From the NCBI RefSeq assembly GCF_001677475.2, contig NZ_CP015229.1: a stretch of 64,000 bases of DNA, one strand, 5' to 3'. The translations under genes were made by a program, and so were the position numbers. This DNA is from Escherichia coli. GTDB lineage: Bacteria > Pseudomonadota > Gammaproteobacteria > Enterobacterales > Enterobacteriaceae. Below, piece after piece: positions 1-62,936 of the stretch (the stretch's first letter is position 1; every line of letters starts with the position of its first letter). The notes beneath the pieces are model-generated. The model made no database searches, was not told the DNA's origin, and was given only the letters and a program-made list of their open reading frames with translations.

Positions 1-1058
1 AAGCCAGCATAACCAATGGCGTACAGGAATCCGTTAGGAAACAGCAGGCCACCCACAACAGGCGGGGCAAAGGTCAGCAACGCTGTTTTCAAACGGCCCA
101 TAGCCGAGTCGTCGAAACCAAACAGATCTGCCAGATAGTCAAACAAACCCAGCGTTACGCCAAGGAACGAACTCGCTACCGCAAAGTTTGAGAACACGAC
201 CAGCAGAAGATCCAGGCTACGGCTGTTCAGCACGCCGCTTAACGCCTGTACCAGCACATCAATATTACCGCCCTTCTCGGCGATGCCGATAAACTCCGGA
301 CGAGGGATGTTTCCCATCGTCGCCAGCAACCAGATGGTATACAGCGCCAGCGCCATCAGCGTACCGTACACCAGGCATTTCACGATGGTTTTCGGATCTT
401 TGCCGTAATACTTCATCAGGCTCGGCACGTTACCGTGATAACCAAACGATGCCAGACAGAATGGCAGCGTCATCAGCAGATACGGTGCATAAGACGCATT
501 GCTTTCGGCGACGTTGAACAATGTCGCAGGCTGCACATGTCCCAGCAGGCTACCGAAGGTGAGGAAAAACGTAATGACTTTCGCCCCCAGCACAATCGCC
601 GTCATCCGGCTGACCGCTTTGGTGCTCAACCACACCACAAACGCCACCAGTAGTGCAAAACCAAATCCAGCTGCCCGTGCAGGGACGTTCAGCGACATCT
701 CCGCGAAGGTGTGATGCAGAATCGAACCGCTGGCAGAAATATAGGCGTAAGTCAGGATATAGAGCACAAAGGCAATGGAAATGCCGTTGACTACGTTCCA
801 GCCTTTGCCGAGCAGGTCTTTGGTGATGGTGTCAAAGCTAGAACCGATTCGATAATTCAGGTTAGCTTCCAGAATCATCAAGCCGGAATGCAGCATACAG
901 AACCAGGTAAAGATCAGCGCCGCCATTGACCAGAAGAACCACGCCCCGGACATGACCACAGGCAGAGAAAACATCCCTGCGCCAATAATGGTGCCGCCGA
1001 TAATCACCACGCCGCCAAGCAGCGACGGTGACGTTTGGGTGGTGGTTAGTGTTGCCAT
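1..1058 (-). CDS. mtr: Tryptophan-specific permease Mtr, N-terminal ~352 codons (3' end cut by window edge)
   Basis: Reverse complement from 1058 translates [43 protein letters not shown]..., matching Mtr; ATG is the complement of 1056..1058. Not in ORF track because truncated. Confidence 0.85.
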
Positions 1059-1140
1059 GAGGGCTTCTCTCCAGTGAAAAATAGTGCGACTGCGTTGTTA
1101 TGCATTGCACTGTACCAGTACACGAGTACAAAAGACAGAA

Positions 1141-1170
1141 AAAAAGCCCCGATGGTAAAAATCGGGGCTG
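1141..1170 (-). terminator. Intrinsic terminator downstream of deaD
   Basis: GC hairpin gccccgatggtaaaaatcggggc followed on the minus strand by a T-run (plus strand aaaaaaa at 1141..1147), 40 nt after the deaD stop. Confidence 0.6.
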
Positions 1171-1211
1171 TATATATTATTTTACAGATTGTGTTCGCTG
1201 TTTAGCGATGA

Positions 1212-3101
1212 TTACGCATCACCACCGAAACGACGACGACCGGTAGAGTCATCACGACGCGGAGCGCGGCCTTCACGACGTTCGCCGCTAAAACGACGAC
1301 CATCACCACGACCACCTTCACGGCGTTCACCGCTGAAGTTACGACCACCTTCACGACGTTCGCCACTGAAACCACGACCACCGCCACGACGCTCACCGCC
1401 AGTATGCGGCTGTGCATCGCCCAGTAACTGCATGTTCATCGGCTTGTTGAGAATGCGAGTGCGCGTAAAGTGTTGCAGCACTTCACCCGGCATACCTTTC
1501 GGCAGTTCGATGGTGGAGTGAGAAGCAAACAGCTTGATGTTACCGATGTAACGGCTGCTGATGTCGCCTTCGTTAGCAATCGCGCCAACGATATGACGAA
1601 CTTCAACACCATCATCGCGGCCCACTTCAATGCGGTACAGCTGCATATCGCCAACATCACGACGTTCACGACGCGGACGATCTTCACGGTCACCACGCGG
1701 GCCACGGTCGTTACGATCGCGCGGACCACGGTCATCACGGTCACGGAATTCACGTTTCGGACGCATCGGCGCATCTGGCGGAACAATCAGAGTACGTTCA
1801 CCCTGTGCCATTTTCAGCAGTGCGGCGGCCAGAGTTTCGAGATCCAGCTCTTCACCTTCTGCCGTCGGCTGAATTTTGCTCAGCAGTGCACGGTATTGAT
1901 CCAGATCGCTGCTTTCCAGCTGCTGCTGTACTTTAGCGGCGAATTTTTCCAGACGACGTTTGCCCAGCAGTTCTGCGTTCGGCAGTTCAACTTCCGGAAT
2001 GGTCAGCTTCATGGTGCGTTCAATGTTACGCAGCAGACGACGCTCACGGTTCTCAACGAACAGCAGCGCACGGCCAGCACGGCCCGCACGACCAGTACGA
2101 CCGATACGGTGAACGTAAGACTCAGAATCCATCGGGATATCGTAGTTAACTACCAGGCTGATACGCTCAACGTCCAGGCCACGGGCCGCAACGTCGGTCG
2201 CAATCAGGATGTCCAGACGACCATCTTTCAGTCGTTCCAGTGTCTGCTCACGCAGCGCCTGGTTCATGTCACCGTTCAGCGCGGCGCTGTTGTAGCCGTT
2301 ACGCTCAAGGGCTTCTGCCACTTCCAGAGTCGCGTTTTTGGTACGAACGAAGATAATCGCCGCATCAAAATCTTCCGCTTCCAGGAAACGTACCAGTGCT
2401 TCGTTTTTACGCATACCCCAGACAGTCCAGTAGCTCTGGCTGATGTCAGGACGGGTAGTCACGCTGGACTGAATGCGCACTTCCTGCGGCTCTTTCATAA
2501 AGCGGCGGGTAATGCGACGAATCGCTTCCGGCATGGTTGCAGAGAACAGAGCGGTCTGATGACCTTCCGGGATCTGCGCCATAATAGTTTCAACGTCTTC
2601 GATGAAGCCCATGCGCAGCATTTCGTCAGCTTCATCCAGAACCAGACCGCTCAGTTTAGAAAGGTCCAGAGTGCCACGTTTCAGGTGATCCAGCAGACGG
2701 CCCGGCGTACCGACAACGATCTGCGGCCCCTGACGCAGGGCGCGTAATTGCACGTCATAACGCTGGCCGCCGTACAGGGCAACCACGTTTACGCCGCGCA
2801 TGTGTTTAGAGAAATCCGTCATTGCCTCAGCAACCTGTACCGCCAGTTCGCGGGTCGGTGCCAACACCAGAATCTGTGGTGCTTTCAGCTCAGGATCAAG
2901 ATTCTGCAGCAGAGGTAAAGAGAATGCTGCAGTTTTTCCGCTCCCCGTCTGGGCCATACCCAGGACGTCGCGGCCATTCAGCAGATGTGGAATACACTCT
3001 GCCTGAATTGGAGATGGTTTTTCGTAACCCAGATCGTTAAGGGCTTCAAGGATAGGAGCCTTCAGGCCCAGATCTGCAAAAGTGGTTTCGAATTCAGCCA
3101 T
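1212..3101 (-). CDS. deaD: ATP-dependent DEAD-box RNA helicase DeaD/CsdA (629 aa)
   Basis: Translation [33 protein letters not shown]... with DEAD-box motifs ([25 protein letters not shown]). Track ORF (651 aa) over-extends; ATG at 3099..3101 gives the 629-aa product. Confidence 0.95.
1230..1420. repeat. Imperfect ~33-nt tandem repeats encoding the Arg/Gly-rich C-terminal tail of DeaD
   Basis: Three copies of cttcacgRcgttcRccRctgaa...acgaccac on the plus strand, giving the peptide repeats [10 protein letters not shown] in DeaD. Confidence 0.6.
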
Positions 3102-3174
3102 GTAGTACGTGTGCCTCAAAATTAATGGCGGCCAGTCTACATAACTCATCATGAAATTGATCAGCAATTTTCAT
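3094..3174 (-). CDS. yrbN: Small protein YrbN (26 aa) overlapping the deaD start
   Basis: Minus-strand ORF ATG(3172..3174) to TGA(3094..3096) translates [26 protein letters not shown]; matches my recollection of the annotated K-12 small protein between nlpI and deaD. Confidence 0.55.
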
Positions 3175-3280
3175 TGAAAAGTGTGAACCGGCTCAAAGTA
3201 GGTGTATTAACGAACAACAACGCCCTCACCCGTTAAGGTGATGGCAATCAAAAAAGATTACGGGCTGATGTGTACGTCAG

Positions 3281-4165
3281 CTATTGCTGGTCCGATTCTG
3301 CCAGGTCATCTTGGTCCTGGCCCAGGAGCGATAATTCCAACAATGCGTATCGGTGCTCAACAAAGTTATGAACGTTGTTGGCAACCGCCAGTTTGAACAG
3401 TGCCGTGGCGCTGTCCAAATCCCCCAGACTTAGGTAGTACTTACCTAAATAGAAGTTGGTTTCACTGAGATGCTCAGCGAGCGAGGTGTTATCCGTTGCG
3501 TCCGCCTTGAGCCTTTCCATTAACGTTTGTTCGCTAATGTTGCCCAGGTAGAACTCGACAATGTTCCATCCCCACTGTTCCTTATCCGATTTTTCGAAGT
3601 GCTGTTTCAACACTTCTTTAGCCTGCTTCTCATCGAGCTTCTGCTCGGCGAGATAAAGCCACAGACTACGGAAAGGATCATTGGGATCGTCTTGATAAAA
3701 CGCCAGCAGATCATCTTGCGCTAACTTGTCACGACCGCCGTAATATAATGCGATCCCGCGATTCAAGTGCGCGTAGTTGTAAGTTGGATCAAGCTCAAGT
3801 ACAGAATCAAACGCTTCATAGGCAGCATCAAAATTGCCTGCCTGCGTTAAATATATGCCTAAGTAATTGAATACTTCAGGCATATCCGGTCGGATTGCCA
3901 GCGCTTGCGAAAAATCGTTACGCGCTAATGCCCTCAGACCGAGACTATCATACAACACTCCGCGCTCATATAAAAGCTGTGCGCGTTCGTCATCGGTTAA
4001 AGCCCGACTGGCAAGGATTTGTTCCATACGTGCCAGAATCACTTCCTGCTGTAAAGTCGGTTGCAATGGTACCGCGAGGACTTCACTTTTACGCCAGGAA
4101 GTATTACTGCATCCTGCAAGCGTAAGTGCTGTCGCAACGAAACACCAGCGCAAAAAAGGCTTCAT
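3281..4165 (-). CDS. nlpI: TPR-repeat lipoprotein NlpI (294 aa)
   Basis: Translation [26 protein letters not shown]... with lipobox LAGC and TPR-like repeats; conserved position upstream of deaD. Confidence 0.95.
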
Positions 4166-4273
4166 TTCCCACTCCCGAAGACCACGGTTGAATGAACGTC
4201 CTGTTCCCGGTTGCTAACAAGGCGTCCTGCCCGGTTAAAAGCCCCCCGCCGCAGCGGAGGGCAAATGGCAACC

Positions 4274-6409
4274 TTACTCGCCCTGTTCAGCAGCCGGAGC
4301 TTCCGGTGCTGCAGCAGGTTGAGACTGCTCAGTCGCTTCTTTAATGCTCAGACGGATACGGCCCTGGCGATCAACTTCCAGAACTTTCACCGGTACTTCC
4401 TGACCCATCTGCAGGTAATCGGTCACTTTCTCAACGCGTTTGTCAGCGATCTGAGAGATGTGTACCAGACCTTCTTTACCGCCGCCGATGGCAACAAATG
4501 CGCCAAAGTCAACTATACGGGTCACTTTACCATTGTAGACGCGGCCCACTTCGATTTCTGCAGTGATCTCTTCGATACGACGAATAGCATGTTTCGCTTT
4601 CTCGCCGTCGGTCGCTGCGATTTTCACAGTACCGTCATCTTCGATTTCGATGGTGGTGCCAGTTTCTTCGGTCAGAGCACGGATAACAGAACCGCCTTTA
4701 CCGATAACGTCTTTGATCTTGTCCGGGTTGATCTTGATGGTATGGATACGCGGAGCGAACTCAGAGATATCGCCGCGCGGCGCGTTGATCGCCTGTTCCA
4801 TTACGCCCAGGATATGCAGACGCGCACCTTTAGCCTGGTTCAGTGCAACCTGCATGATCTCTTTGGTGATACCTTCAATTTTGATATCCATCTGCAATGC
4901 AGAGATACCGTCGCGGGAACCCGCAACTTTGAAGTCCATATCGCCCAGGTGATCTTCGTCGCCTAAAATGTCAGACAGTACAACGTAGTTGTCGCCTTCT
5001 TTCACCAGACCCATTGCGATACCCGCAACAGCAGCTTTGATCGGCACACCTGCGTCCATCAGCGCCAGAGACGCGCCGCACACGGAAGCCATAGAAGAAG
5101 AACCGTTGGATTCGGTGATTTCAGACACTACACGTACGGTGTACGGGAATTTGTCCATATCCGGCATGACTGCCAGCACGCCGCGCTTCGCCAGACGACC
5201 GTGACCAATTTCACGACGCTTCGGAGAACCGACCATGCCGGTTTCGCCTACGGAGTACGGAGGGAAGTTGTAGTGGAACAGGAAGGTGTCAGTACGTTCG
5301 CCCATCAGTTCATCAAGAACCTGCGCGTCACGAGCAGTACCCAGCGTTGCGGTAACCAGCGCCTGCGTTTCACCACGGGTGAACAGCGCAGAACCGTGAG
5401 TACGCGGCAGCACGCCAGTACGCACATCCAGACCACGGATCATATCTTTTTCACGACCATCGATACGCGGTTCGCCTGCCAGTACGCGGCTACGAACAAC
5501 GTTTTTCTCGATCGCGTGCAGAATTTCACCCAGTTCGTTTTCGTCCAGGGTTTCGTCTTCAGCAAGCAGCGTCGCGATGGTTTCAGATTTGATGACATCA
5601 ACCTGCGCATAACGCTCTTGTTTGTCGGTGATGCGGTAAGCATCACTCAGACGAGCTTCAGCCAGTGCAGCAACGCGCGCGTTCAGCGCTTCGTTTACCG
5701 GCTCCGGCTGCCAGTCCCAACGCGGTTTACCGGCTTCTTTCACCAGTTCATTGATGTTCTGAATAACAACCTGCTGTTGTTCATGACCGAACACTACTGC
5801 GCCCAGCATCTGGTCTTCACTCAGCAGTTCAGCTTCAGATTCAACCATCAGTACAGCGGCTTCAGTACCCGCAACAACCAGATCCAGTTTGCTCTCTTTC
5901 AGCTCGTCCTGAGTCGGGTTCAGTACGTACTGGTCATTGATGTAACCTACGCGGGCAGCACCAATCGGACCATTGAACGGAATACCAGACAGAGACAGTG
6001 CTGCGGAAGCACCAATCATCGCGACGATATCCGGGTTAACTTGCGGGTTAACAGAAACCACGGTGGCGATAACCTGAACTTCGTTGACGAAGCCTTCCGG
6101 GAACAGCGGGCGAATCGGGCGGTCAATCAGACGCGCGATCAGGGTTTCGCCTTCGCTTGGGCGGCCTTCACGACGGAAGAAGCTACCCGGGATACGACCA
6201 GCAGCGTAGGTACGCTCCTGATAGTTAACGGTCAGTGGGAAGAAGTCCTGACCTGGTTTGGCTTTTTTCTGGCCAACAACGGTAACAAATACCGCGGTGT
6301 CATCCATGCTAACCATAACAGCGGCAGTAGCCTGACGAGCCATCATGCCGGTTTCCAGAGTCACGGTGTGTTGGCCGTACTGGAATTTACGAACGATCGG
6401 ATTAAGCAA
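4274..6409 (-). CDS. pnp: Polynucleotide phosphorylase PNPase (711 aa), TTG start
   Basis: Translation (M)[30 protein letters not shown]... through KH/S1 C-terminus; start is TTG (complement of 6407..6409), as known for E. coli pnp. Track ORF (740 aa) over-extends. Confidence 0.95.
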
Positions 6410-6610
6410 TGTAATATCCTTTCTCTTTCTTAGACAGTACCTTACGGCACTGGTGTTAATACCCGATCTTCTGCGCATCCTCGCGACTAATGACAACCCT
6501 AACCCAGCTCTATGTGGGTAAAGCCTCTCATTAGCCGCGCGAACCTCTGCAACGGAAGATCATTCATAGCAACAATACATTAGTTTCCAGTGAATTGCTG
6601 CCGTCAGCTT

Positions 6611-6640
6611 GAAAAAAGGGGCCACTCAGGCCCCCTTTTC
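6611..6640 (-). terminator. rpsO intrinsic terminator (hairpin also usable from the plus strand)
   Basis: ggggccactcaggcccc hairpin flanked by A-run on plus and T-run on minus, 16 nt downstream of the rpsO stop. Confidence 0.7.
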
Positions 6641-6655
6641 TGAAACTCGCAAGAA

Positions 6656-7021
<366 letters not shown>

Positions 7022-7073
7022 TTAAGCGGCAGTATTCTACTCGTAGCGACCTGTTATCGCAAGACGGTTAACA

Positions 7074-8018
7074 TTACGCCGGGTATTCAACCACCAGGCG
7101 ACGAGGCGCAACGCGGCCTTCATCGTCAATTTCGCCCATACCGATAAATTTGCCGTTCTCACCTTCCGTGACGCGAACCAGTCCTTCCAGCGGCGCACCG
7201 GATGTACGAACCGGGTTACCATTTTTGAAGTAAACAGAAGACGTTAACGGAAGATTCACCACCGGATAGTCCGAAGCTGGACTGTCCATTGGCATCAGTA
7301 ATGGATCAAGTAACTCCGCAGCCGGAATATCCTGCTGTTCAGCTTGTTCGACCAGTTCACGCAGATGTTCCAGGGTCACCATCCGTTCAACTGGATATTT
7401 ACTTACCGCCAGACGACGCAGGTAAATAACATGCGCGCCACAACCGAGTTTTTCACCCAGGTCGTCAATGATAGTGCGGATATAAGTACCTTTTGAGCAG
7501 TGAATTTCCAGCTCCAGCTCATTGCCTTCATGGCGAATAAACAGCAATTCATAAACGGTAATCGGACGCGCTTCACGCGGAACTTCAATGCCCTGACGCG
7601 CGTATTCGTACAGTTTTTTGCCCTGATATTTCAGTGCTGAATACATCGAAGGGATCTGTTCGATATCGCCACGGAAGGTATCCAGCGCCGCCGCCAGTTG
7701 CTCTGCACTAAAGGTTACCGGACGTTCTTCAACGATTTGTCCATCGGCATCGGAAGTATCGGTACGCTGTCCAAGACGCGCAATCACCCGATAGCGTTTG
7801 TCGGAGTCCAGCAGATACTGGGAAAACTTCGTCGCTTCCCCGAGGCAAATCGGCAACATGCCAGTTGCCAGCGGGTCCAGCGCGCCGGTGTGTCCGGCAC
7901 GGTTGGCGTTATATATACGTTTCACTTTTTGCAGCGCATCGTTGCTGGACATACCCTGCGGTTTATCCAGCAACAAAACGCCGTTAATGTCGCGACCGCG
8001 ACGACGAGGACGACTCAT
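7074..8018 (-). CDS. truB: tRNA pseudouridine-55 synthase TruB (314 aa)
   Basis: Translation [53 protein letters not shown]... (TruB catalytic Asp motif). Confidence 0.95.
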
Positions 8019-8419
8019 TAGTCCTCCTTGCTGTCGTCCGGGTTAACACGACGTTCTTCGTCATGTTTGACCACGCTGGTCACCAGGTTTGACATGCGCA
8101 TCCCTTCAACCAGCGAGTTGTCGTAGAAGAAGGTCAGTTCCGGCACGATACGCAGGCGCATCGCTTTCCCCAGCAGGCTGCGGATGAAACCAGAAGCTTC
8201 CTGCAACGCTTTGATGCCCGCTTTAACCGCGTCTTCATCTTTGTCGTTGAGGAATGTCACATATACTTTGGCATACGCCAGGTCGCGAGACATTTCGACA
8301 CCGGAAACGGTGGTCATCATGCCCAGGCGAGGATCTTTAATTTCACGCTGCAGGATGAGAGCGATCTCTTTTTGCATTTCCTGCGCTACGCGCTGCGGGC
8401 GACCAAATTCTTTCGCCAT
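8018..8419 (-). CDS. rbfA: Ribosome-binding factor A RbfA (133 aa)
   Basis: Translation [56 protein letters not shown]...; ATG is the complement of 8417..8419; track ORF over-extended by 6 codons. Confidence 0.93.
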
Positions 8420-8445
8420 AATAAATTCTCCTGACAAAAAAGGGG

Positions 8446-8468
8446 CTGTTAGCCCCTTTTTAAAATTA
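8446..8468 (-). terminator. Hairpin plus U-tract between infB and rbfA (possible internal attenuator/terminator)
   Basis: Minus strand reads aggggctaacagcccct followed by ttttttt. Confidence 0.45.
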
Positions 8469-8505
8469 ATTTCAGGTGGAAGGGCTGTTCACGTTGGCCT
8501 GATAA

Positions 8506-8569
8506 GACGCGCCAGCGTCGCATCAGGCAATCCATGCCGGATGCGGCGTAAACGCCTTATCCCGCATGG
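8506..8569. repeat. REP/BIME-type palindromic units in the infB-rbfA spacer
   Basis: gcctgataagacgcgccagcgtcgcatcaggc and gccggatgcggcgtaaacgccttatcccgcatgg resemble E. coli REP consensus. Confidence 0.6.
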
Positions 8570-8582
8570 AACCCTAAAAACC

Positions 8583-11255
8583 TTAAGCGATGGTACGTTG
8601 GATTTCGATGATTTCGAATACTTCGATCACATCGCCAGTGCGGACGTCGTTGTAGTTCTTAACGCCGATACCACATTCCATACCGTTACGGACTTCGTTA
8701 ACGTCATCTTTGAAGCGGCGCAGGGACTCCAGCTCGCCTTCGTAGATAACCACGTTGTCGCGCAGAACGCGGATCGGGTTGTGACGTTTAACCACACCTT
8801 CGGTAACCATACAACCTGCGATGGCACCAAATTTCGGTGATTTGAATACGTCACGAACTTCCGCCAGACCGATAATCTGTTGTTTCAGTTCCGGAGACAG
8901 CATACCGCTCATTGCCGCTTTCACTTCGTCGATCAGGTTATAGATGACGGAGTAGTAACGCAGATCCAGGCTTTCCGCTTCAATCACTTTACGTGCAGAG
9001 GCATCAGCACGTACGTTGAAGCCAACCAGGATGGCGTTGGACGCCGCAGCCAGGGTAGCGTCGGTTTCGGTGATACCACCTACGCCAGAACCGATGATCT
9101 TCACTTTAACTTCGTCAGTAGACAGTTTCAGCAAGGAGTCGGAGATAGCTTCCACAGAACCCTGTACGTCTGCCTTCAGGACGATATTCACTTCGTGAAC
9201 TTCGCCTTCGGTCATGTTGGCGAACATGTTCTCGAGTTTAGATTTCTGCTGACGCGCCAGTTTAACTTCGCGGAATTTACCCTGACGATAGAGTGCAACT
9301 TCACGCGCTTTCTTCTCGTCACGTACAACGGTAACTTCATCACCCGCAGCCGGAACGCCGGACAGGCCGAGGATTTCCACCGGAATGGACGGACCCGCTT
9401 CCAGCACTTCCTGACCCAGTTCGTTACGCATCGCACGAACACGACCGTATTCGAAGCCACACAGAACGATATCGCCCTTGTGCAGAGTACCTTCACGTAC
9501 CAGAACGGTAGCAACCGGACCACGACCTTTATCGAGGAAGGATTCGATAACCGCACCGCTCGCCATGCCTTTACGTACCGCTTTCAGTTCCAGAACTTCC
9601 GCCTGCAGCAGGATAGCGTCCAGCAGCTCATCGATACCAGTACCCGCTTTCGCAGACACATGTACGAACTGGCTTTCACCGCCCCACTCTTCCGGCAGGA
9701 TGCCGTACTGGGAGAGTTCGTTCTTAACGCGATCCGGATCGGCTTCTGGTTTATCGATCTTGTTCACTGCAACGACCACCGGAACCTGCGCCGCTTTCGC
9801 GTGCTGGATTGCTTCGATGGTCTGCGGCATTACGCCGTCGTCGGCAGCAACAACCAGGACTACGATGTCCGTTGCCTGCGCACCACGAGCACGCATTGAA
9901 GTAAACGCGGCGTGCCCCGGGGTGTCCAGGAAGGTGATCATGCCGTTTTCAGTTTCAACGTGGTATGCACCAATGTGCTGGGTAATGCCGCCCGCTTCGC
10001 CAGAGGCCACTTTCGTTGAACGAATGTAGTCCAGCAGAGAGGTTTTACCGTGGTCAACGTGACCCATGATGGTCACAACCGGCGCGCGCGGTTCAGCCGC
10101 TGCCCCCGTGTCACGGTCGCTCATTACCGCTTCTTCCAGCTCGTTTTCACGACGCAGGATAACTTTGTGGCCCATCTCTTCAGCAACCAGCTGTGCGGTT
10201 TCCTGATCGATAACCTGGTTGATGGTTGCCATTGCGCCCAGTTTCATCATCGCTTTGATGACCTGAGAGCCTTTAACAGCCATCTTGTTCGCCAGTTCGC
10301 CAACGGTGATGGTTTCGCCGATCACAACGTCACGGTTAACGGCCTGAGCAGGCTTCTGGAAGCCTTGCTGCAGCGAAGAACCTTTACGTTTTCCGCCTTT
10401 ACCGCCACGTACTGCTGCGCGTGCTTCTTCACGATCAGCTTTTGATTCAGCGTGTTTGTTGCCTTTCTTCGGACGCGCAGCTTTCGCGTTACGACCACGG
10501 CCACGGCCGCCTTCGACTTCACGATCGCTTTCGTCTTCTGCCTGGCGAGCATGTTGAGAAGTAGTGACGTGATAATCGCTGGAATCTTCAGTCGGTTCCG
10601 CGTTATCAGTCCATTTGTTTTCTTCCGCCATACGACGTGCTTCTTCAGCAACGCGACGTGCTTCTTCTTCGAGTTTACGACGCGCTTCTTCTTCGGCTTT
10701 ACGCTTGAGCTCTGCAGCTTCCTGCTCACGGCGGGCTTTTTCAGCCTGGGCGTTTTTAGTCATATCGTCTTGTTGATTGCTCACTTTGTCTTTTTCCGCA
10801 GCTTCACGTTTCGCTTGTTCAGCAGCTTCACGCTTAGCTTGTTCTGCGGCCTCACGTTCAGCTTTTTGTTGCGCCTCGCGTTTAGCCGATTCTTCTGCCT
10901 CACGACGGGCTTGCTCTTCCGCTTCACGCTGCGCTTGCTCTTCCGCTGCAAGGCGTTCAGCCTCTTGCGGATCGCGTTTCACAAAGGTGCGTTTCTTGCG
11001 GACTTCGATTTGTACCGATTTGCTTTTTCCACCGGTACCAGGAATGTTAAGGGTGCTGCGTGTTTTACGTTGCAGCGTCAATTTGTCCGGGCCTGAATTT
11101 TTCTGATTCAGGTGGTCAATCAAAGTCTGTTTCTCTTGTGCGGACACAGAGTCGTCAGCAGACTTCCGGATACCTGCATCAGCAAATTGCTGTACCAGGC
11201 GTTCCACGGAGGTCTGTCGCTCTGCGGCCAGCGTTTTAATCGTTACATCTGTCAT
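8583..11255 (-). CDS. infB: Translation initiation factor IF-2 (890 aa, alpha form)
   Basis: Translation [31 protein letters not shown]... with G-domain ([21 protein letters not shown]); in-frame internal starts at codon 158 (GTG) and 165 (ATG) are present. Confidence 0.97.
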
Positions 11256-11279
11256 GCTGTTCCTTCCTGCTACAGTTTA

Positions 11280-12767
<1,488 letters not shown>

Positions 12768-12794
12768 CGCGGGCTTTTCACCTCATCCAGACTA

Positions 12795-13247
12795 TTAAAA
12801 GTGGGGAACCAGGTTCGCCTTCTGGATATTACTCAGCGCGAACACTTCATCTTTACCTTCGACGGTAACTGTGATCATTTCACCGTCTACCGCTTTGATA
12901 ACGCCCTGCCATTTGCGACGGTTTTGTACCGCCATACGGAGAACCAAAGTCACCTCTTCTCCGACAAAACGGGCGTAGTGTTCAGCCGTGAACAGTGGGC
13001 GATCGAGACCCGGTGAGGAGACTTCCAGGTTATAAGCAACGGTGATGGGATCTTCAACATCCAGCACAGCACTTACCTGGTGGCTCACATCAGCACAATC
13101 ATCAACATTGATGCCATCTTCACTATCAATATAGATGCGCAGTGTGGATGTGCGACCGCGAATAAATTCGATGCCAACCAGTTCAAAACCCAGGGCCTCA
13201 ACTGGCGCAGTAATCATCTCTGTTAATTTTTGCTCTAATGTGGACAA
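12795..13247 (-). CDS. rimP: Ribosome maturation factor RimP (150 aa), probable TTG start
   Basis: Translation (M)[44 protein letters not shown]...; the 154-codon track ORF starts at an upstream TTG; I place the start at the TTG at 13245..13247 from memory of the 150-aa product. Confidence 0.85.
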
Positions 13248-13263
13248 GCCCACCCCCAAGACA

Positions 13264-13329
13264 TAAAAAAAGGGCCTAAAGCCCAGTTATTCTGTAGTCA
13301 GATAACAAAAAACCCCGATAAATCGGGGC
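13264..13329 (-). terminator. Two tandem hairpin/U-tract terminators downstream of metY
   Basis: Minus strand: gggctttaggccc + ttttttt (13264..13283) and ccccgatttatcgggg + tttttt (13305..13329). Confidence 0.6.
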
Positions 13330-13453
13330 TTTATATAACTGAACCCTATAACCGCAACTGCGGTCTGGAGCACTTTCCAGAAGGATTTTTTCAAATCCCA
13401 CTACGAAGGCCGAAGTCTTCACAGTATATTTGAAAAAGGACTCTAAGGGAAAG

Positions 13454-13530
<77 letters not shown>

Positions 13531-13862: not shown

Positions 13863-15221
<1,359 letters not shown>

Positions 15222-15228
15222 TTCGACA

Positions 15229-16854
15229 TCAACCCTGCCCTTCAGGGGTGGGGTTACCTTGCTTATCCTCTGTAAACTCCTTTCTGAGCATCACATAATC
15301 GAAAACATCATGGTTTGCATCCACAACCCGTGAGTCTCCTTTATAGTGTGCAATCACTTCCTCAAGCGTTTGTGGCTGTTCCGGCTTTGTTACCCCCATC
15401 CACGCATTAATAAGGTAATTATTGTAAGCTGTCGAAAAGATGTTGTTTTCCGTTGTGCGATCCACGCCATCCCCAAGAACGGGGCTATACCAGATAAACA
15501 TCGGGACATGATATGCCTGCTGGCTAGCCTCCCTGCCTCCATGAAAATAGACGTTCTTCTTCGTAGGGTCACGTTCCAGGCCGTGGTCGGCAAAATACAT
15601 GACCGAGGCGCGGCGATCTTTTAATAATTCAAAAACCTGACCTAGCAAACTATCTGTGTAATGAATGGAGTTGTCATAGCAGGCATCCTGATCGTCCTGC
15701 GGTTGAAACACGGCGCTGGATTGCGGATAGGCGCTACAAGCCGGTTCATGGCTTCCATTTAAATGAAGAACAATCAGTTTCTTTTGCTGCATATTTTGCT
15801 GTAACGCTTGCGATAAATGCGGCAACAACAATTCATCAAATCCTCTGACATAGACTGTTTCCATGGCGCGCATGGCGATACTGGTAACTGCTGTACCATT
15901 CTGCCGAAAAGCGGATTGCGAGCTTAGCCAGAAAGTCTGAAATCCTGCCTGATTAGCCATATTAATAATGTTGTCGGGGTAATTATGAATGTCATGGCTC
16001 AAAACGGAATCAGCAGTTAAAGAAAGGGGAACCGACAGCGCAGTGTAAGGTGCACCGCTTATTGCTTGATTAAACAGTTTGATCTGTTTTCTTTGTGCTT
16101 CGACTTGCGGTGTCGTAGAGCGTGTATATCCATACAAAGACATATTGTCGACACGTACAGACTCCCCCACAATCAACACGTAGGTATCAATACCTGTATC
16201 CCTGACTGATAATTGAAAATACGGCACCGTGTTTGCAATTGAGAGTAATCTTTGATGCTCTTTCGCTGCTAAAGCAAAATAATTGAGATTGAAAAACGGA
16301 GTATAGGTAGCAAATCGCGACGCTAGTATATATGGACTGAATGCTTTTTTATTTTTTGCATCTTTATAAGCAAATTGACAAGCAGAAAATAAACTGCCCG
16401 AAATGACAATCAGCAATAATATTCCTGTCACTTTTTTTGTCGGTAAGGAAACATCATATTTTATTATTACTGCCAAAAAAAGAAGGGATAAAAAAGCAAA
16501 AGCACATAGATAAGGGATATACATCCCCAGCATTTTGACAACTTCATCCGGATCACTCTGGAGCACACTAATCGCAAATCCATCATTGAAAGTTGTACCA
16601 AAGGTACACCATGAATAGAGGCTAATACTCATGTCTGCCGCAGTCAGTAACACAAATGGTGCGGCAACAAGCAGGCGAAGCGGAAGGGGTGATATACGTT
16701 TAACAACCAGGATGGTCAGGACGAAGAACAGCAATCGCTGAACCATATGCGCTCCGGAAGAGGCGACTAAGTTCGTAATACCAAAAACAATAACACAAAG
16801 ATACAACAACCAATGAGATTTAAAACTTCTAGCAAATTTGTTGAATACTGTCAT
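15229..16854 (-). CDS. yhbX: Putative phosphoethanolamine transferase / sulfatase-family inner-membrane protein YhbX (541 aa)
   Basis: Translation MTVFNKFARSFKSHWLLYLCVIVFGITNLV... with N-terminal TM helices and a C-terminal sulfatase-like domain; AT-rich relative to neighbours. Start taken at the ATG at 16852..16854. Confidence 0.85.
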   Translation of the reverse strand: MTVFNKFARSFKSHWLLYLCVIVFGITNLVASSGAHMVQRLLFFVLTILVVKRISPLPLRLLVAAPFVLLTAADMSISLYSWCTFGTTFNDGFAISVLQSDPDEVVKMLGMYIPYLCAFAFLSLLFLAVIIKYDVSLPTKKVTGILLLIVISGSLFSACQFAYKDAKNKKAFSPYILASRFATYTPFFNLNYFALAAKEHQRLLSIANTVPYFQLSVRDTGIDTYVLIVGESVRVDNMSLYGYTRSTTPQVEAQRKQIKLFNQAISGAPYTALSVPLSLTADSVLSHDIHNYPDNIINMANQAGFQTFWLSSQSAFRQNGTAVTSIAMRAMETVYVRGFDELLLPHLSQALQQNMQQKKLIVLHLNGSHEPACSAYPQSSAVFQPQDDQDACYDNSIHYTDSLLGQVFELLKDRRASVMYFADHGLERDPTKKNVYFHGGREASQQAYHVPMFIWYSPVLGDGVDRTTENNIFSTAYNNYLINAWMGVTKPEQPQTLEEVIAHYKGDSRVVDANHDVFDYVMLRKEFTEDKQGNPTPEGQG

Positions 16855-17278
16855 CCAGAAATCCAAGTTCACAACCAATATAAACAATTATCAACAATGT
16901 TCAATTTTATATCAGACATGTTTTTCAACTCTGATCCATATCAGAACGAAACACTGTTAGTTTTTTCTTTTTAAATGATGCGGCCATTGCGTTCTCAGTA
17001 ATTAAATAACATTATCAATGCGTCTCTAAACATTACGCAGAACGTAGCCATCAGTAGTTATACTGACAGGAGCAGGATGGTTTATCGAGAAGTAAACATA
17101 TCCGTATTCGTACCGGAACTGGAGTTGACACAATAAAGTGCCAATTATGTCAGCAGAAGGGAAAAATTTATAACTAAGGCGTACCGGCACCATCGTTTCA
17201 AGGTACCAGCTACGAGTAAAGCAACTGGACGAGATACAGATACCTGACTACCATTCCTCAGACCAGGACCAAAACGAA

Positions 17279-17303
17279 AAAAGACGCTTTTCAGCGTCTC
17301 TTT
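17279..17303 (-). terminator. Intrinsic terminator downstream of leuU (end of secG-leuU unit)
   Basis: Minus strand agacgctgaaaagcgtct hairpin followed by tttttt. Confidence 0.6.
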
Positions 17304-17312
17304 TCTGGAATT

Positions 17313-17399
17313 TGGTACCGAGGACGGGACTTGAACCCGTAAGCCCTATTGGGCACTACCACCTCAAGGTAGCGTGTCTACCAATTCCACCACCTCGGC
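17313..17399 (-). tRNA. leuU: tRNA-Leu (GAG anticodon, 87 nt)
   Basis: Reverse complement reads GCCGAGGTGGTGGAATTGGTAGACACGCTACCTTGAGGTGGTAGTGCCCAATAGGGCTTACGGGTTCAAGTCCCGTCCTCGGTACCA; long variable arm; immediately downstream of secG. Confidence 0.95.
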
Positions 17400-17413
17400 A
17401 CGGATACTACTTT

Positions 17414-17746
17414 TTAGATCGGGATATCGCTGGTCGGCTTAGCCGGAGCAACTGGCTGAGTTTGTTCGGTTTTCGCCGGCGCACTCAGGTTTTCCCATTC
17501 GCTACCTTTATTGGTTTTATTGTTATTGATGTTACCCAGCACCAGACTGATGATGAAGAATAACGTTGCCAGCAGCGCCGTCATGCGGGTCATGAAGTTA
17601 CCAGAACCACTTGAACCAAACAGCGTAGCGGAAGCGCCTGCTCCGAAGGAGGCTCCCATATCAGCGCCTTTACCTTGCTGCAGCATGATCAGACCAACAA
17701 GGCCAATTGCCACAATAAGGAAAACTACTAAAAGAGCTTCGTACAT
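17414..17746 (-). CDS. secG: Protein-export membrane protein SecG (110 aa)
   Basis: Translation MYEALLVVFLIVAIGLVGLIMLQQGKGADMGASFGAGASATLFGSSGSGNFMTRM...; track ORF over-extended by 16 codons. Confidence 0.93.
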   Translation of the reverse strand: MYEALLVVFLIVAIGLVGLIMLQQGKGADMGASFGAGASATLFGSSGSGNFMTRMTALLATLFFIISLVLGNINNNKTNKGSEWENLSAPAKTEQTQPVAPAKPTSDIPI

Positions 17747-17926
17747 AATCAACCTGTTCCTTGCGGAGTTGCCGCGTACCAATGCTTCAACCAATAAAGC
17801 GGGAGTTTTTAATCTTTCCCACTGAAGCGGGTGTGAATACTAACCAAAGCGAATGACCTTCGCAAGGGCAATTTTATCGCATTGTATCAACTGCGGAAAA
17901 AAACAGCAAAACCGATGTGTTCGCTG

Positions 17927-17952
17927 AGAAAAAAGGCGACAATCGCCGCCTT
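17927..17952 (-). terminator. Intrinsic terminator downstream of glmM
   Basis: Minus strand aaggcggcgattgtcgcctt hairpin followed by ttttttc. Confidence 0.55.
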
Positions 17953-17973
17953 TTTAGCCAGTCATTTATCGTT

Positions 17974-19311
17974 TTAAACGGCTTTTACTGCATCGGCGAT
18001 ACGGTGTGCAAATTCAGTTACCTGCGCTTCGTCTTCACCTTCTACCATCACGCGAATTAACGGTTCGGTGCCGGATTTACGCAACAGCACACGTCCACGA
18101 CTACCCAGCGCCGCTTCAACTTCGGCGGTCACAGCTTTGACTGATTCATGCTCCAGTGGATCGCCGCTACCTGCGGTGTAACGCACGTTAACCAGAATCT
18201 GCGGGAACATTTTCATGCCGCTGCAAAGGTCGTGCAGGCTCATATGGTTACGTGCCATCGCCGCCAGCACCTGCAAGCCAGCAACGATGCCGTCACCGGT
18301 AGTGGTTTTATCCAGCAGGATCACATGACCGGAATTCTCTGCACCGATACGCCAGCCTTTCTCCTGCATTTTTTCCAGTACGTAGCGGTCACCCACTTTC
18401 GCGCGCGCAAATGGAATTCCTAACTGTTTCAGCGCCAGTTCAAGCCCCATGTTGCTCATCAATGTACCCACAGCGCCACCACGCAGCTGGCCCTGACGAA
18501 GACCTTCACGCGCGATGATATACATGATCTGATCGCCATCGACTTTATTGCCTTCATGGTCAACCATAATCACGCGATCGCCGTCGCCGTCAAAGGCGAT
18601 ACCGAGATCTGCTTTTTCAGCCAGTACGCGCGCCTGTAACGCACGAACATCAGTTGCGCCCACTTCGGCATTGATATTTACACCGTTCGGCTCACAACCG
18701 ATAGCGATAACGTTAGCCCCCAGTTCGCGCAGCACGTTCGGCGCGATGTGATAAGTCGCACCGTTTGCACAATCCACCACAATCTTCAGTTCACTGAGGC
18801 TAAGTTCGTTCGGGAACGTGGCTTTGCAAAACTCGATATAACGACCCGCGGCATCAACGATACGGCTGGCTTTACCCAGTTCTGCCGAATCAACGCAGCT
18901 GATCTCTTTTTCCATTTCCGCTTCGATGGCCTCTTCTACCGCATCTGGTAGTTTGGTGCCGTCGATAGAGAAGAATTTAATGCCATTATCGTAGAACGGG
19001 TTATGCGATGCAGATATCACAATGCCGGCCTCTGCGCGGAAGGTACGCGTCAGATAAGCCACGGCCGGTGTTGGCATCGGACCAGTGAAGAGTGCGGAAA
19101 GGCCCGCAGCCGCCAGACCCGCTTCCAGTGCTGACTCCAGCATATAGCCAGAAATACGCGTGTCTTTACCAATAATAATCTTACGGGAGCCGTGGCGCGC
19201 CAGCACTTTACCCGCGGCCCAACCCAGCTTAAGCACAAAATCAGGTGTGATCGGCGCATCCCCTACACGACCACGAATCCCATCGGTACCGAAATATTTA
19301 CGATTACTCAT
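17974..19311 (-). CDS. glmM: Phosphoglucosamine mutase GlmM (445 aa)
   Basis: Translation [34 protein letters not shown]... with active-site ASHNP motif. Confidence 0.97.
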
Positions 19312-62557: not shown

Positions 62558-62936
62558 TCTGTAAGGTCAGTGTGATTAACATCATCAGTGACATCCTATC
62601 ACAGGATTGAAAGTAGGGGAAAATGGCAGGGTTTTCTCTTTGTGCCTCATCATTACCATAATTAATGGAATAATTAACTATTGCGGAAAATTAATGTAAC
62701 GCAGATAAAAACATCCCGATTGAATTATTTATAAGACTATTCACGAGCATTATGAATATTATGAATGTGTTCTTACAAAATAATCATAAGCGCATATTTT
62801 TTAATGAAAAATCACCTCACCCACAATTAAAAACACGACATCCGCACCATAAATAGACTTGCAAAAAATATAACATCATTGTTTTCAATCTGCCGTTTAT
62901 GGGATTGACCGTTTTCTTTTGACACGGAGTTCAACA

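Follow-up and report, generated by a model that had tools for sequence, protein, structure and literature searches.

Layout of the argG-leuU locus

The gene yhbX lies between argG and the tRNA gene leuU in a 64,000-nucleotide stretch of Escherichia coli DNA (contig NZ_CP015229.1 of assembly GCF_001677475.2; the whole stretch is referred to here as the window). The window matches thousands of E. coli genomes at 98-99% identity. To our knowledge, yhbX is one of five E. coli phosphoethanolamine-transferase paralogs and the only one of them without a known acceptor. An earlier note on the window had described yhbX and the DNA upstream of it as a compositionally foreign islet. The features concerned are as follows.

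13878..15221, + strand: argG, the conserved left flank (annotation); convergent with yhbX, the two stop codons being 7 bp apart
15222..17269, no strand assigned: proposed foreign cassette (islet), consisting of yhbX, its 3' hairpin and its upstream region, between the argG stop codon and the leuU terminator
15229..16854, - strand: yhbX, 541 aa (RefSeq annotation); the start is the ATG at 16854
15231..15255, no strand assigned: G-U-containing hairpin of 11 pairs that overlaps the last yhbX codons (RNA fold); the cassette's own 3' element
16042..16044, - strand: codon of the predicted nucleophile Thr271 (alignment to NmEptA T280)
16855..17269, - strand: AT-rich upstream (promoter/regulatory) region of yhbX, 38.5% GC, no recognisable gene
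16877..16904, - strand: best sigma-70-like promoter candidate for yhbX (TTGAAC, 16-nt spacer, TATATT; 9 of 12 consensus positions matched)
17276..17305, - strand: leuU intrinsic (bidirectional) terminator, from a terminator scan of both strands; kept in all genera compared
17313..17399, - strand: leuU, tRNA-Leu(GAG), the conserved right flank (ARAGORN, Rfam RF00005 and annotation)

The spacer between yhbX and leuU is 458 bp long, and secG and glmM lie beyond leuU. The earlier note had extended the AT-rich upstream region to 17310. This region is AT-rich compared to the flanking genes; however, 17276-17305 is the conserved core terminator of leuU, the foreign part therefore ends near 17269, and the GC content of the region is unremarkable for intergenic DNA.

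Base composition and codon use

The GC content of the whole window is 51.7%, compared to 43.0% for the yhbX coding sequence, 38.6% for 16855-17310 and 38.5% for 16855-17275. The values for the flanking genes are 52.4% (argG), 49.5% (secG) and 53.5% (glmM). At 42.0% GC, the interval 15229-17310 (2082 bp) was essentially the lowest of all segments of this length in the 64 kb; the minimum of the scan was 41.9% at 15241 and equally low segments made up 0.13%. GC at third codon positions (GC3) was 0.424 for yhbX compared to a mean of 0.554 (standard deviation (sd) 0.047) for 50 long open reading frames (ORFs), among which it was the lowest at approximately -2.8 sd. The synonymous-codon log-likelihood of yhbX was the third lowest of the 50. 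The AT-richness claimed for yhbX and its upstream region relative to argG and secG/glmM was thus confirmed, with GC, GC3 and codon use all atypical.

A native gene inherited vertically might be AT-rich because of a hydrophobic amino-acid composition and low expression, and the region upstream of it might be ordinary AT-rich intergenic DNA. In agreement with such an origin, the most AT-rich part of yhbX is the 5' half that encodes the membrane domain (34-45% GC), and 95% of E. coli genomes carry the gene, at a diversity like that of core genes. The 38.5% GC of the upstream region is also only ~1.3 sd below the mean of 20 intergenic regions in the window (44.4%, sd 4.7), two of which are lower. 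However, GC3 of yhbX is 0.42 compared to 0.55 for the window and to 0.56-0.61 for eptA, eptB, eptC and opgE, the four E. coli paralogs with the same membrane architecture. Since these four paralogs have host-typical GC3, amino-acid composition is not the cause of the yhbX skew. yhbX is the sole compositionally foreign member among the five E. coli phosphoethanolamine-transferase paralogs. A native origin is further opposed by the lack of yhbX at the syntenic site in all genera examined outside Escherichia, by alternative cassettes in the slot within E. coli and by homologs that are patchy and non-syntenic, all of which are described below. It is already contradicted by the data, and we consider it extremely improbable.

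TpA steps occur in the upstream region at twice the window average. What marks this region as foreign is its behaviour in the alignments described below and not GC content by itself.

Among intergenic regions of the window, the highest AT content is found elsewhere, at 62558-62936 (33% GC), and the lowest-GC 456-bp stretch starts at ~62531. Among the paralogs, K-12 eptB (3708616-3710475) directly adjoins the tRNA gene proK and its composition is host-like.

The syntenic site in other genera

We fetched the argG loci of other genera and located YhbX (by tblastn), SecG, GlmM and the tRNAs in each; these loci are among the matches listed. In ten Enterobacteriaceae loci (nine named and one from a metagenome-assembled genome), the argG stop codon and leuU are separated by 117-570 bp and tblastn gave no YhbX match. 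The empty sites were from Citrobacter youngae, C. werkmanii, Enterobacter spp., Phytobacter, Superficieibacter and Pseudocitrobacter, and in their spacers the canonical argG terminator and REP-type repeats are found together with the leuU terminator seen in the window. In Kluyvera, Pluralibacter, Escherichia sp. ESNIH1 and strain RIT691, the argG-leuU slot is filled with 1.7-3.6 kb of unrelated cargo. In the empty-site genera, homology to the window sets in again precisely at the leuU terminator (near 17270), and the boundaries of the islet are sharp on both sides (left 15213-15221, right 17270). No YhbX homolog is listed for Salmonella LT2 or Citrobacter rodentium in a previous study (PMC4013655). 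Collectively, the atypical GC3, the empty syntenic sites, the sharp boundaries and the patchy, non-syntenic relatives bear out the proposal that this is a compositionally foreign islet.

Other origins of the cassette were considered and rejected. A 20-nt match to leuU at 17186-17205 was examined as a possible tRNA remnant or att duplication; its Smith-Waterman score was 18 compared to 16.4 ± 2.2 for shuffled sequences, 25% of which equalled it. For a phage origin, no relative was found in IMG/VR, and the PHROG matches were only to families of unknown function.

In Citrobacter youngae and C. werkmanii, ~3.9 kb of extra DNA is located between secG and glmM (8962-12836 in one of the loci), which is a second variable spot in this conserved block of genes.

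Slot content varies within Escherichia

To describe the E. coli population, we used 5426 complete genomes and scored the cassette as present when at least 80% of its length was found. The yhbX cassette was present in 5165 of the 5426 genomes (95%), and a non-homologous cassette carrying a helix-turn-helix (HTH) gene was present in 237 (4.4%). The HTH cassette has 37% GC and encodes a 317-aa XRE-type helix-turn-helix protein on the strand opposite to yhbX. It retains the ancestral argG terminator and has the same right boundary as the yhbX cassette. In a few E. coli genomes, yhbX is disrupted by the insertion sequences IS1 or IS1203.

The E. fergusonii homolog of YhbX has 531 aa and is encoded in the same slot, in the orientation seen in E. 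coli, but the two proteins are only 69% identical. In this comparison, synonymous divergence (pS) of yhbX was 0.748, which is saturated, and non-synonymous divergence (pN) was 0.189, while nusA, rimP, argG, secG, glmM, folP and ftsH showed 97-100% amino-acid identity and pS of 0.056-0.212. Nucleotide identity to E. fergusonii is 95-98% until the last argG codons, where it decreases to 55-70%, and it reaches 100% again at 17270. Within E. coli, pS was 0.060 for yhbX, 0.087 for argG and 0.114 for glmM. Since yhbX pS within E. coli is not above that of its flanks, a raised local mutation rate cannot explain the gap to E. fergusonii. At least three alternative contents with sharp shared boundaries are counted for the slot in these data: E. 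coli-type yhbX, E. fergusonii-type yhbX and the HTH gene. On balance, we favour the interpretation that E. coli and E. fergusonii yhbX are deep-diverged xenologs and that the slot contents were swapped as whole cassettes via recombination in the conserved flanks.

The two alleles could also stem from a single acquisition in the Escherichia ancestor followed by fast divergence in place, for example under relaxed constraint on silent H-NS-bound DNA, and would then be true orthologs. In favour of this, slot and orientation are shared between the species, the boundaries nearly coincide and the 3' hairpins are related; the two types are also mutually closest (69-70%), with no intermediate or donor among the matches listed. 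H-NS has also been proposed to facilitate the diversification of transferred DNA (PMC4720273). However, this scenario needs a rate rise of at least 10-fold: pS is saturated at 0.75 compared to 0.06-0.21 on both flanks and the upstream region is unalignable, yet synonymous diversity of yhbX within E. coli is not above the flanks. The left junctions differ (GQ* at the end of argG in E. coli compared to the ancestral AK* in E. fergusonii), and a third deep lineage of the family is demonstrably mobile. Divergence in place after one insertion is thus the weaker alternative to xenologous cassettes, and we regard it as unlikely.

The 3' end of argG also differs between slot alleles. The canonical argG terminator (GGCCGC-N4-GCGGCC followed by a U-run) is kept in Citrobacter and in the HTH allele of E. 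coli and is missing in yhbX-carrying E. coli, and the yhbX cassette would have replaced it together with the ancestral REP-type repeats. The last codons of argG read GQ* in the window, AK* in E. fergusonii and Citrobacter, and VK* in the HTH allele. The sole structure after the argG stop codon in the window is the hairpin at 15231..15255 (centroid -17.1 kcal/mol), and a related hairpin, CCCTGCCC...GGGCAGGG, is found in E. fergusonii within a 43-bp spacer. Since the argG terminator is lost, the two genes are convergent and the hairpin has no U-tract, argG transcripts may read antisense into yhbX. The argG-yhbX pair has been named an 'excludon' (PMC12288877).

A recent transfer from E. fergusonii to E. 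coli was considered because nine E. coli-labelled genomes have the fergusonii-type allele. No such transfer was concluded, as their flanks are likewise ~99% fergusonii-like over 17.6 kb. The nine genomes (NZ_CP098223.1 and eight RefSeq records) are either mislabelled or contain a large recombinant segment. For the HTH cassette, as found in E. coli 31B19CPO010B (locus 3123-4290), the match of the encoded protein to known families is limited to its N-terminal 40-60 residues. In E. coli O111:H8 99.1145, IS1203 truncates the 3' end of yhbX, and island-type genes (IS3, DUF4942, DUF957) are located at the expected place of argG.

Relatives of YhbX are patchily distributed and mobile

The third lineage of the family, which we call YhbX2, has 557 aa, 63-65% identity to YhbX and 44% GC. 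It adjoins a P4-type integrase beside tRNA-Phe, is present in 446 of the 5426 E. coli genomes and was also found on a 62-kb plasmid. An exhaustive profile search gave 121 clusters at E<=1e-30, in which the nearest relatives outside Escherichia were 41-48% identical. These relatives belong to Buttiauxella, Pectobacterium, Mixta and the betaproteobacterium Microvirgula, where their genes stand alone at loci unrelated to the argG-leuU site. In Buttiauxella the gene is AT-rich as well, with 42.6% GC compared to 51.1% for its flanks. Judged from sequence comparison, the phylogeny and distribution of the YhbX family are incongruent with the core genome, in view of the saturated pS relative to E. fergusonii and the non-syntenic distant relatives.

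YhbX2 is the terminal cargo gene of its P4-type island (locus 1-9770). This island also encodes an H-NS-family protein (locus 1752-2213), a WYL-domain protein and several uncharacterised proteins.

YhbX is predicted to be an intact phosphoethanolamine transferase of a distinct subfamily

The YhbX sequence matched the Pfam Sulfatase family PF00884 (3.3e-56, residues 224-467) and aligned with EcEptC (5zzu) and with full-length NmEptA (5fgn; NmEptA residues 56-489). An AlphaFold2 model of YhbX was of moderate quality (pLDDT 66, pTM 0.71). It contains long helices at residues 13-31, 36-52, 57-85, 102-132 and 140-168, which have low pLDDT, and hydrophobic segments extend over residues ~13-164. The best Foldseek matches to the model were 6a82 (EcEptC), 5fgn (NmEptA), 9nww (full-length MCR-1) and 4kav, with E values of 1e-16 to 1e-19. 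In the alignment, YhbX E231, T271, H369, D423, H424 and H449 correspond to NmEptA E240, T280, H383, D452, H453 and H465. E231, T271, H369, D423 and H424 are invariant across eight members comprising the YhbX lineages, EptA, EptB, EptC and OpgE. By sequence and predicted fold, YhbX thus consists of a helical membrane domain at the N-terminus, followed by a domain of the alkaline-phosphatase/sulfatase fold in the periplasm.

YhbX shares these two domains, the Thr nucleophile and the Zn-site residues with the EptA/MCR-1, EptB, EptC (CptA) and OpgE transferases. In contrast to this common architecture, YhbX is only 24-32% identical to E. coli EptA, EptB, EptC and OpgE, and it scored below every curated NCBIfam cut-off for the EptA, EptB, EptC/CptA and MCR groups (best scores 155 vs 500, 142 vs 404, 121 vs 561, 104 vs 493 and 95 vs 660 bits), being far under the cut-offs of all MCR models. 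YhbX proteins make up a separate clade, in which three deep lineages are distinguished. Within E. coli, pN/pS of yhbX is 0.09, indicating purifying selection. Collectively, the alignments and the model predict an inner-membrane enzyme of the phosphoethanolamine-transferase family that is intact, maintained by selection and placed in a distinct subfamily outside the EptA, EptB, EptC and OpgE groups.

If YhbX works like EptA and MCR-1, Thr271, located at a Zn site formed by E231, D423 and H424 together with H369 and H449, would accept the phosphoethanolamine group of phosphatidylethanolamine, and YhbX would then transfer this group to an acceptor facing the periplasm. The chemistry of YhbX is therefore likely, on the example of these enzymes, to be phosphoethanolamine transfer. 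EptA and MCR give resistance to polymyxin and colistin, and relatives in the family modify the lipopolysaccharide core, periplasmic glucans, flagella and pili.

The earlier note had called YhbX an EptA/OpgE-like membrane protein of the sulfatase family whose substrate is not established. The Pfam match, the fold and the catalytic residues agree with this description, as do the missed NCBIfam ortholog thresholds and a previous report that no function of YhbX is established (PMC4013655). In the literature found, no function or phenotype of YhbX was reported. A defence function was considered and rejected: YhbX had no PADLOC match, and the HTH cassette protein had only helix-turn-helix-level matches.

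It is conceivable that yhbX is a functionless relic, a silenced and decaying foreign gene that is kept only as neutral DNA. The gene is coated by H-NS and has only a weak sigma-70 signal (see below), the literature found holds no phenotype or function for it, and it has been lost or disrupted in some lineages by IS1, IS1203 or cassette replacement. Decay is nevertheless hard to reconcile with a full-length 541-aa ORF in ~95% of the 5426 genomes, with pN/pS of 0.09 and dN/dS of ~0.05 even relative to the E. fergusonii allele, with the invariance of all catalytic residues, and with an upstream region ~five-fold more conserved than the synonymous sites of yhbX. We consider a relic highly unlikely.

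H-NS binds the cassette in K-12

Published H-NS chromatin immunoprecipitation on microarrays (ChIP-chip) in MG1655 reports bound regions at 3318000-3320779 under aerobic and at 3318628-3320878 under anaerobic conditions, in old coordinates (Myers et al. 2013, PMC3688515, Table S3). The old coordinates were converted to NC_000913.3 with an offset of ~1978 bp, which was deduced from a peak at 3320105 labelled within leuU together with the K-12 annotation. With this offset, the regions map to approximately 15219-17998 (aerobic) and 15847-18097 (anaerobic) of the window. The aerobic patch begins at the argG stop codon and spans yhbX, its upstream region, leuU and secG. The published K-12 H-NS patch thus covers both yhbX and the upstream region.

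In the same study, an FNR ChIP peak at yhbX appeared only in an hns stpA double mutant (0.42 to 0.70) (PMC3688515, Tables S7 and S11), and O2-dependent expression of yhbX was listed only in the hns stpA mutant (PMC3688515). Of the earlier claim that the locus is H-NS-silenced, occupancy is directly supported by the K-12 ChIP-chip data, while silencing itself is only indirectly shown, through the FNR peak and the O2 response in hns stpA cells. On the basis of the K-12 data, we propose that H-NS, with StpA, would coat the whole cassette because it is AT-rich, and that its weak promoter would thereby be kept essentially inactive under laboratory conditions. We know of no counter-silencer for yhbX.

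This resembles xenogeneic silencing in E. coli and Salmonella, in that an AT-rich acquired segment lies in an H-NS ChIP region, here of roughly 2.3-2.8 kb, and in that transcription-factor binding and regulated expression are unmasked at yhbX in the hns stpA mutant. Unlike typical xenogeneically silenced loci, yhbX is a very small single-gene unit.

The upstream region is conserved within E. coli and probably untranscribed

The upstream region was unalignable with E. fergusonii and with the empty-site genera. Within E. coli, its nucleotide diversity (pi) is 0.011 compared to a yhbX pS of 0.06, which makes it ~five-fold more conserved. This conservation hints at a regulatory function. Two small ORFs are located in or near the region, one of 55 aa (17026-17193, - strand) and one of 53 aa (16813-16974, + strand); neither had a Pfam match, and the K-12 annotation lists nothing there.

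A weak K-12 sigma-70 peak in ChIP-seq data maps, with the position again converted, to ~16815 of the window, about at the yhbX start codon (PMC3688515). Since this peak agrees with the promoter candidate at 16877-16904, most of the 415 bp would be upstream DNA and not transcribed leader. The earlier note had described a long AT-rich leader with no ORFs. The region is AT-rich and has no Pfam-recognisable ORF; however, the 415-bp stretch probably lies upstream of the transcript and would not be a leader.

Two other candidates for the upstream region were rejected. An RNA element was not supported, with no Rfam match at E<=1, and a promoter island was not supported either, with 6 promoter-like sites compared to 5.0 ± 2.4 expected. 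Genomic SELEX of minor sigma factors reports a low-level peak (3.2) in the yhbX-leuU spacer at ~17171 of the window (K-12 old coordinate 3319952), in its heat-shock sigma section (PMC5493296).

A probable horizontally acquired cassette in a slot that may be recurrently refilled

Taken together, we conclude with a probability of about 80% that 15222-17269 is a small horizontally acquired cassette in a recurrently refilled argG-leuU slot, bound and probably silenced by H-NS and carrying an intact enzyme gene.

Several observations weigh against this conclusion. At the yhbX cassette, no integrase or transposase ORF was found, and no significant att-type direct repeat or tRNA remnant; the absence of mobility genes and repeats lowers the claim to an integrative element, not the claim of foreignness. 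Among the matches listed from a search of 5.8 billion proteins, no donor lineage was found: the closest protein to the E. fergusonii type is the E. coli type, at 70%, with none between. A single ancestral insertion would likewise account for the slot, the orientation and the similar 3' hairpin that both yhbX alleles have in common, and among named Escherichia species the comparison covers E. coli and E. fergusonii but not albertii, marmotae or ruysiae. With respect to silencing, the H-NS data come from K-12 and not from the present strain, the published supplementary data searched did not show that yhbX is derepressed in an hns mutant, and the high-affinity H-NS motif TCGATAAATT was not enriched in the sequence (4 sites with <=2 mismatches compared to 2.4 expected).

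The type of feature is already known, namely an AT-rich, H-NS-bound, acquired single-gene islet beside a tRNA gene. Like the tRNA-linked P4-type integrase islands at pheV and pheU, the yhbX cassette is immediately beside a tRNA gene. In contrast to these islands, their integrase and duplicated tRNA 3' end were not found at the yhbX cassette, which starts after the leuU terminator and not within the tRNA. What is new here is that the argG-leuU slot is probably a cassette-replacement site, with diverged yhbX xenologs and a non-homologous alternative, and that the YhbX subfamily is also mobile elsewhere.

O-antigen loci are replacement-type flexible genomic islands, in which alternative non-homologous cassettes likewise occur at one locus between conserved genes. 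The argG-leuU cassette differs in being a single gene of ~1-2 kb, whereas replacement-type islands are multi-gene clusters, and a link to surface structures such as that at O-antigen loci is not demonstrated for this slot. As a tentative and rather doubtful extension, the argG-leuU junction may be a single-gene replacement hot spot and YhbX a fifth, mobile class among the enterobacterial phosphoethanolamine transferases, acting on an envelope acceptor, the turnover then reflecting diversifying selection on the surface by phages, host defences or cationic peptides.

Small AT-rich, H-NS-bound islets beside tRNA genes are textbook features of genomes, and this one is of modest interest as such. 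A yhbX that is foreign, H-NS-coated and silent would account for the failure of laboratory screens to show what it does. With alternative cassettes in the slot and paralogs on an integrase island and a plasmid, the family is a candidate mobile envelope-modification trait.

Neighbouring features

To the left of argG, one further tRNA gene was located, next to rimP.

13454-13530: metY tRNA, after rimP (- strand) in the local order

The rimP leader family RF01770 gave a full-length match (102 bits) at 13265-13365 on the - strand, upstream of rimP-nusA-infB, as expected.

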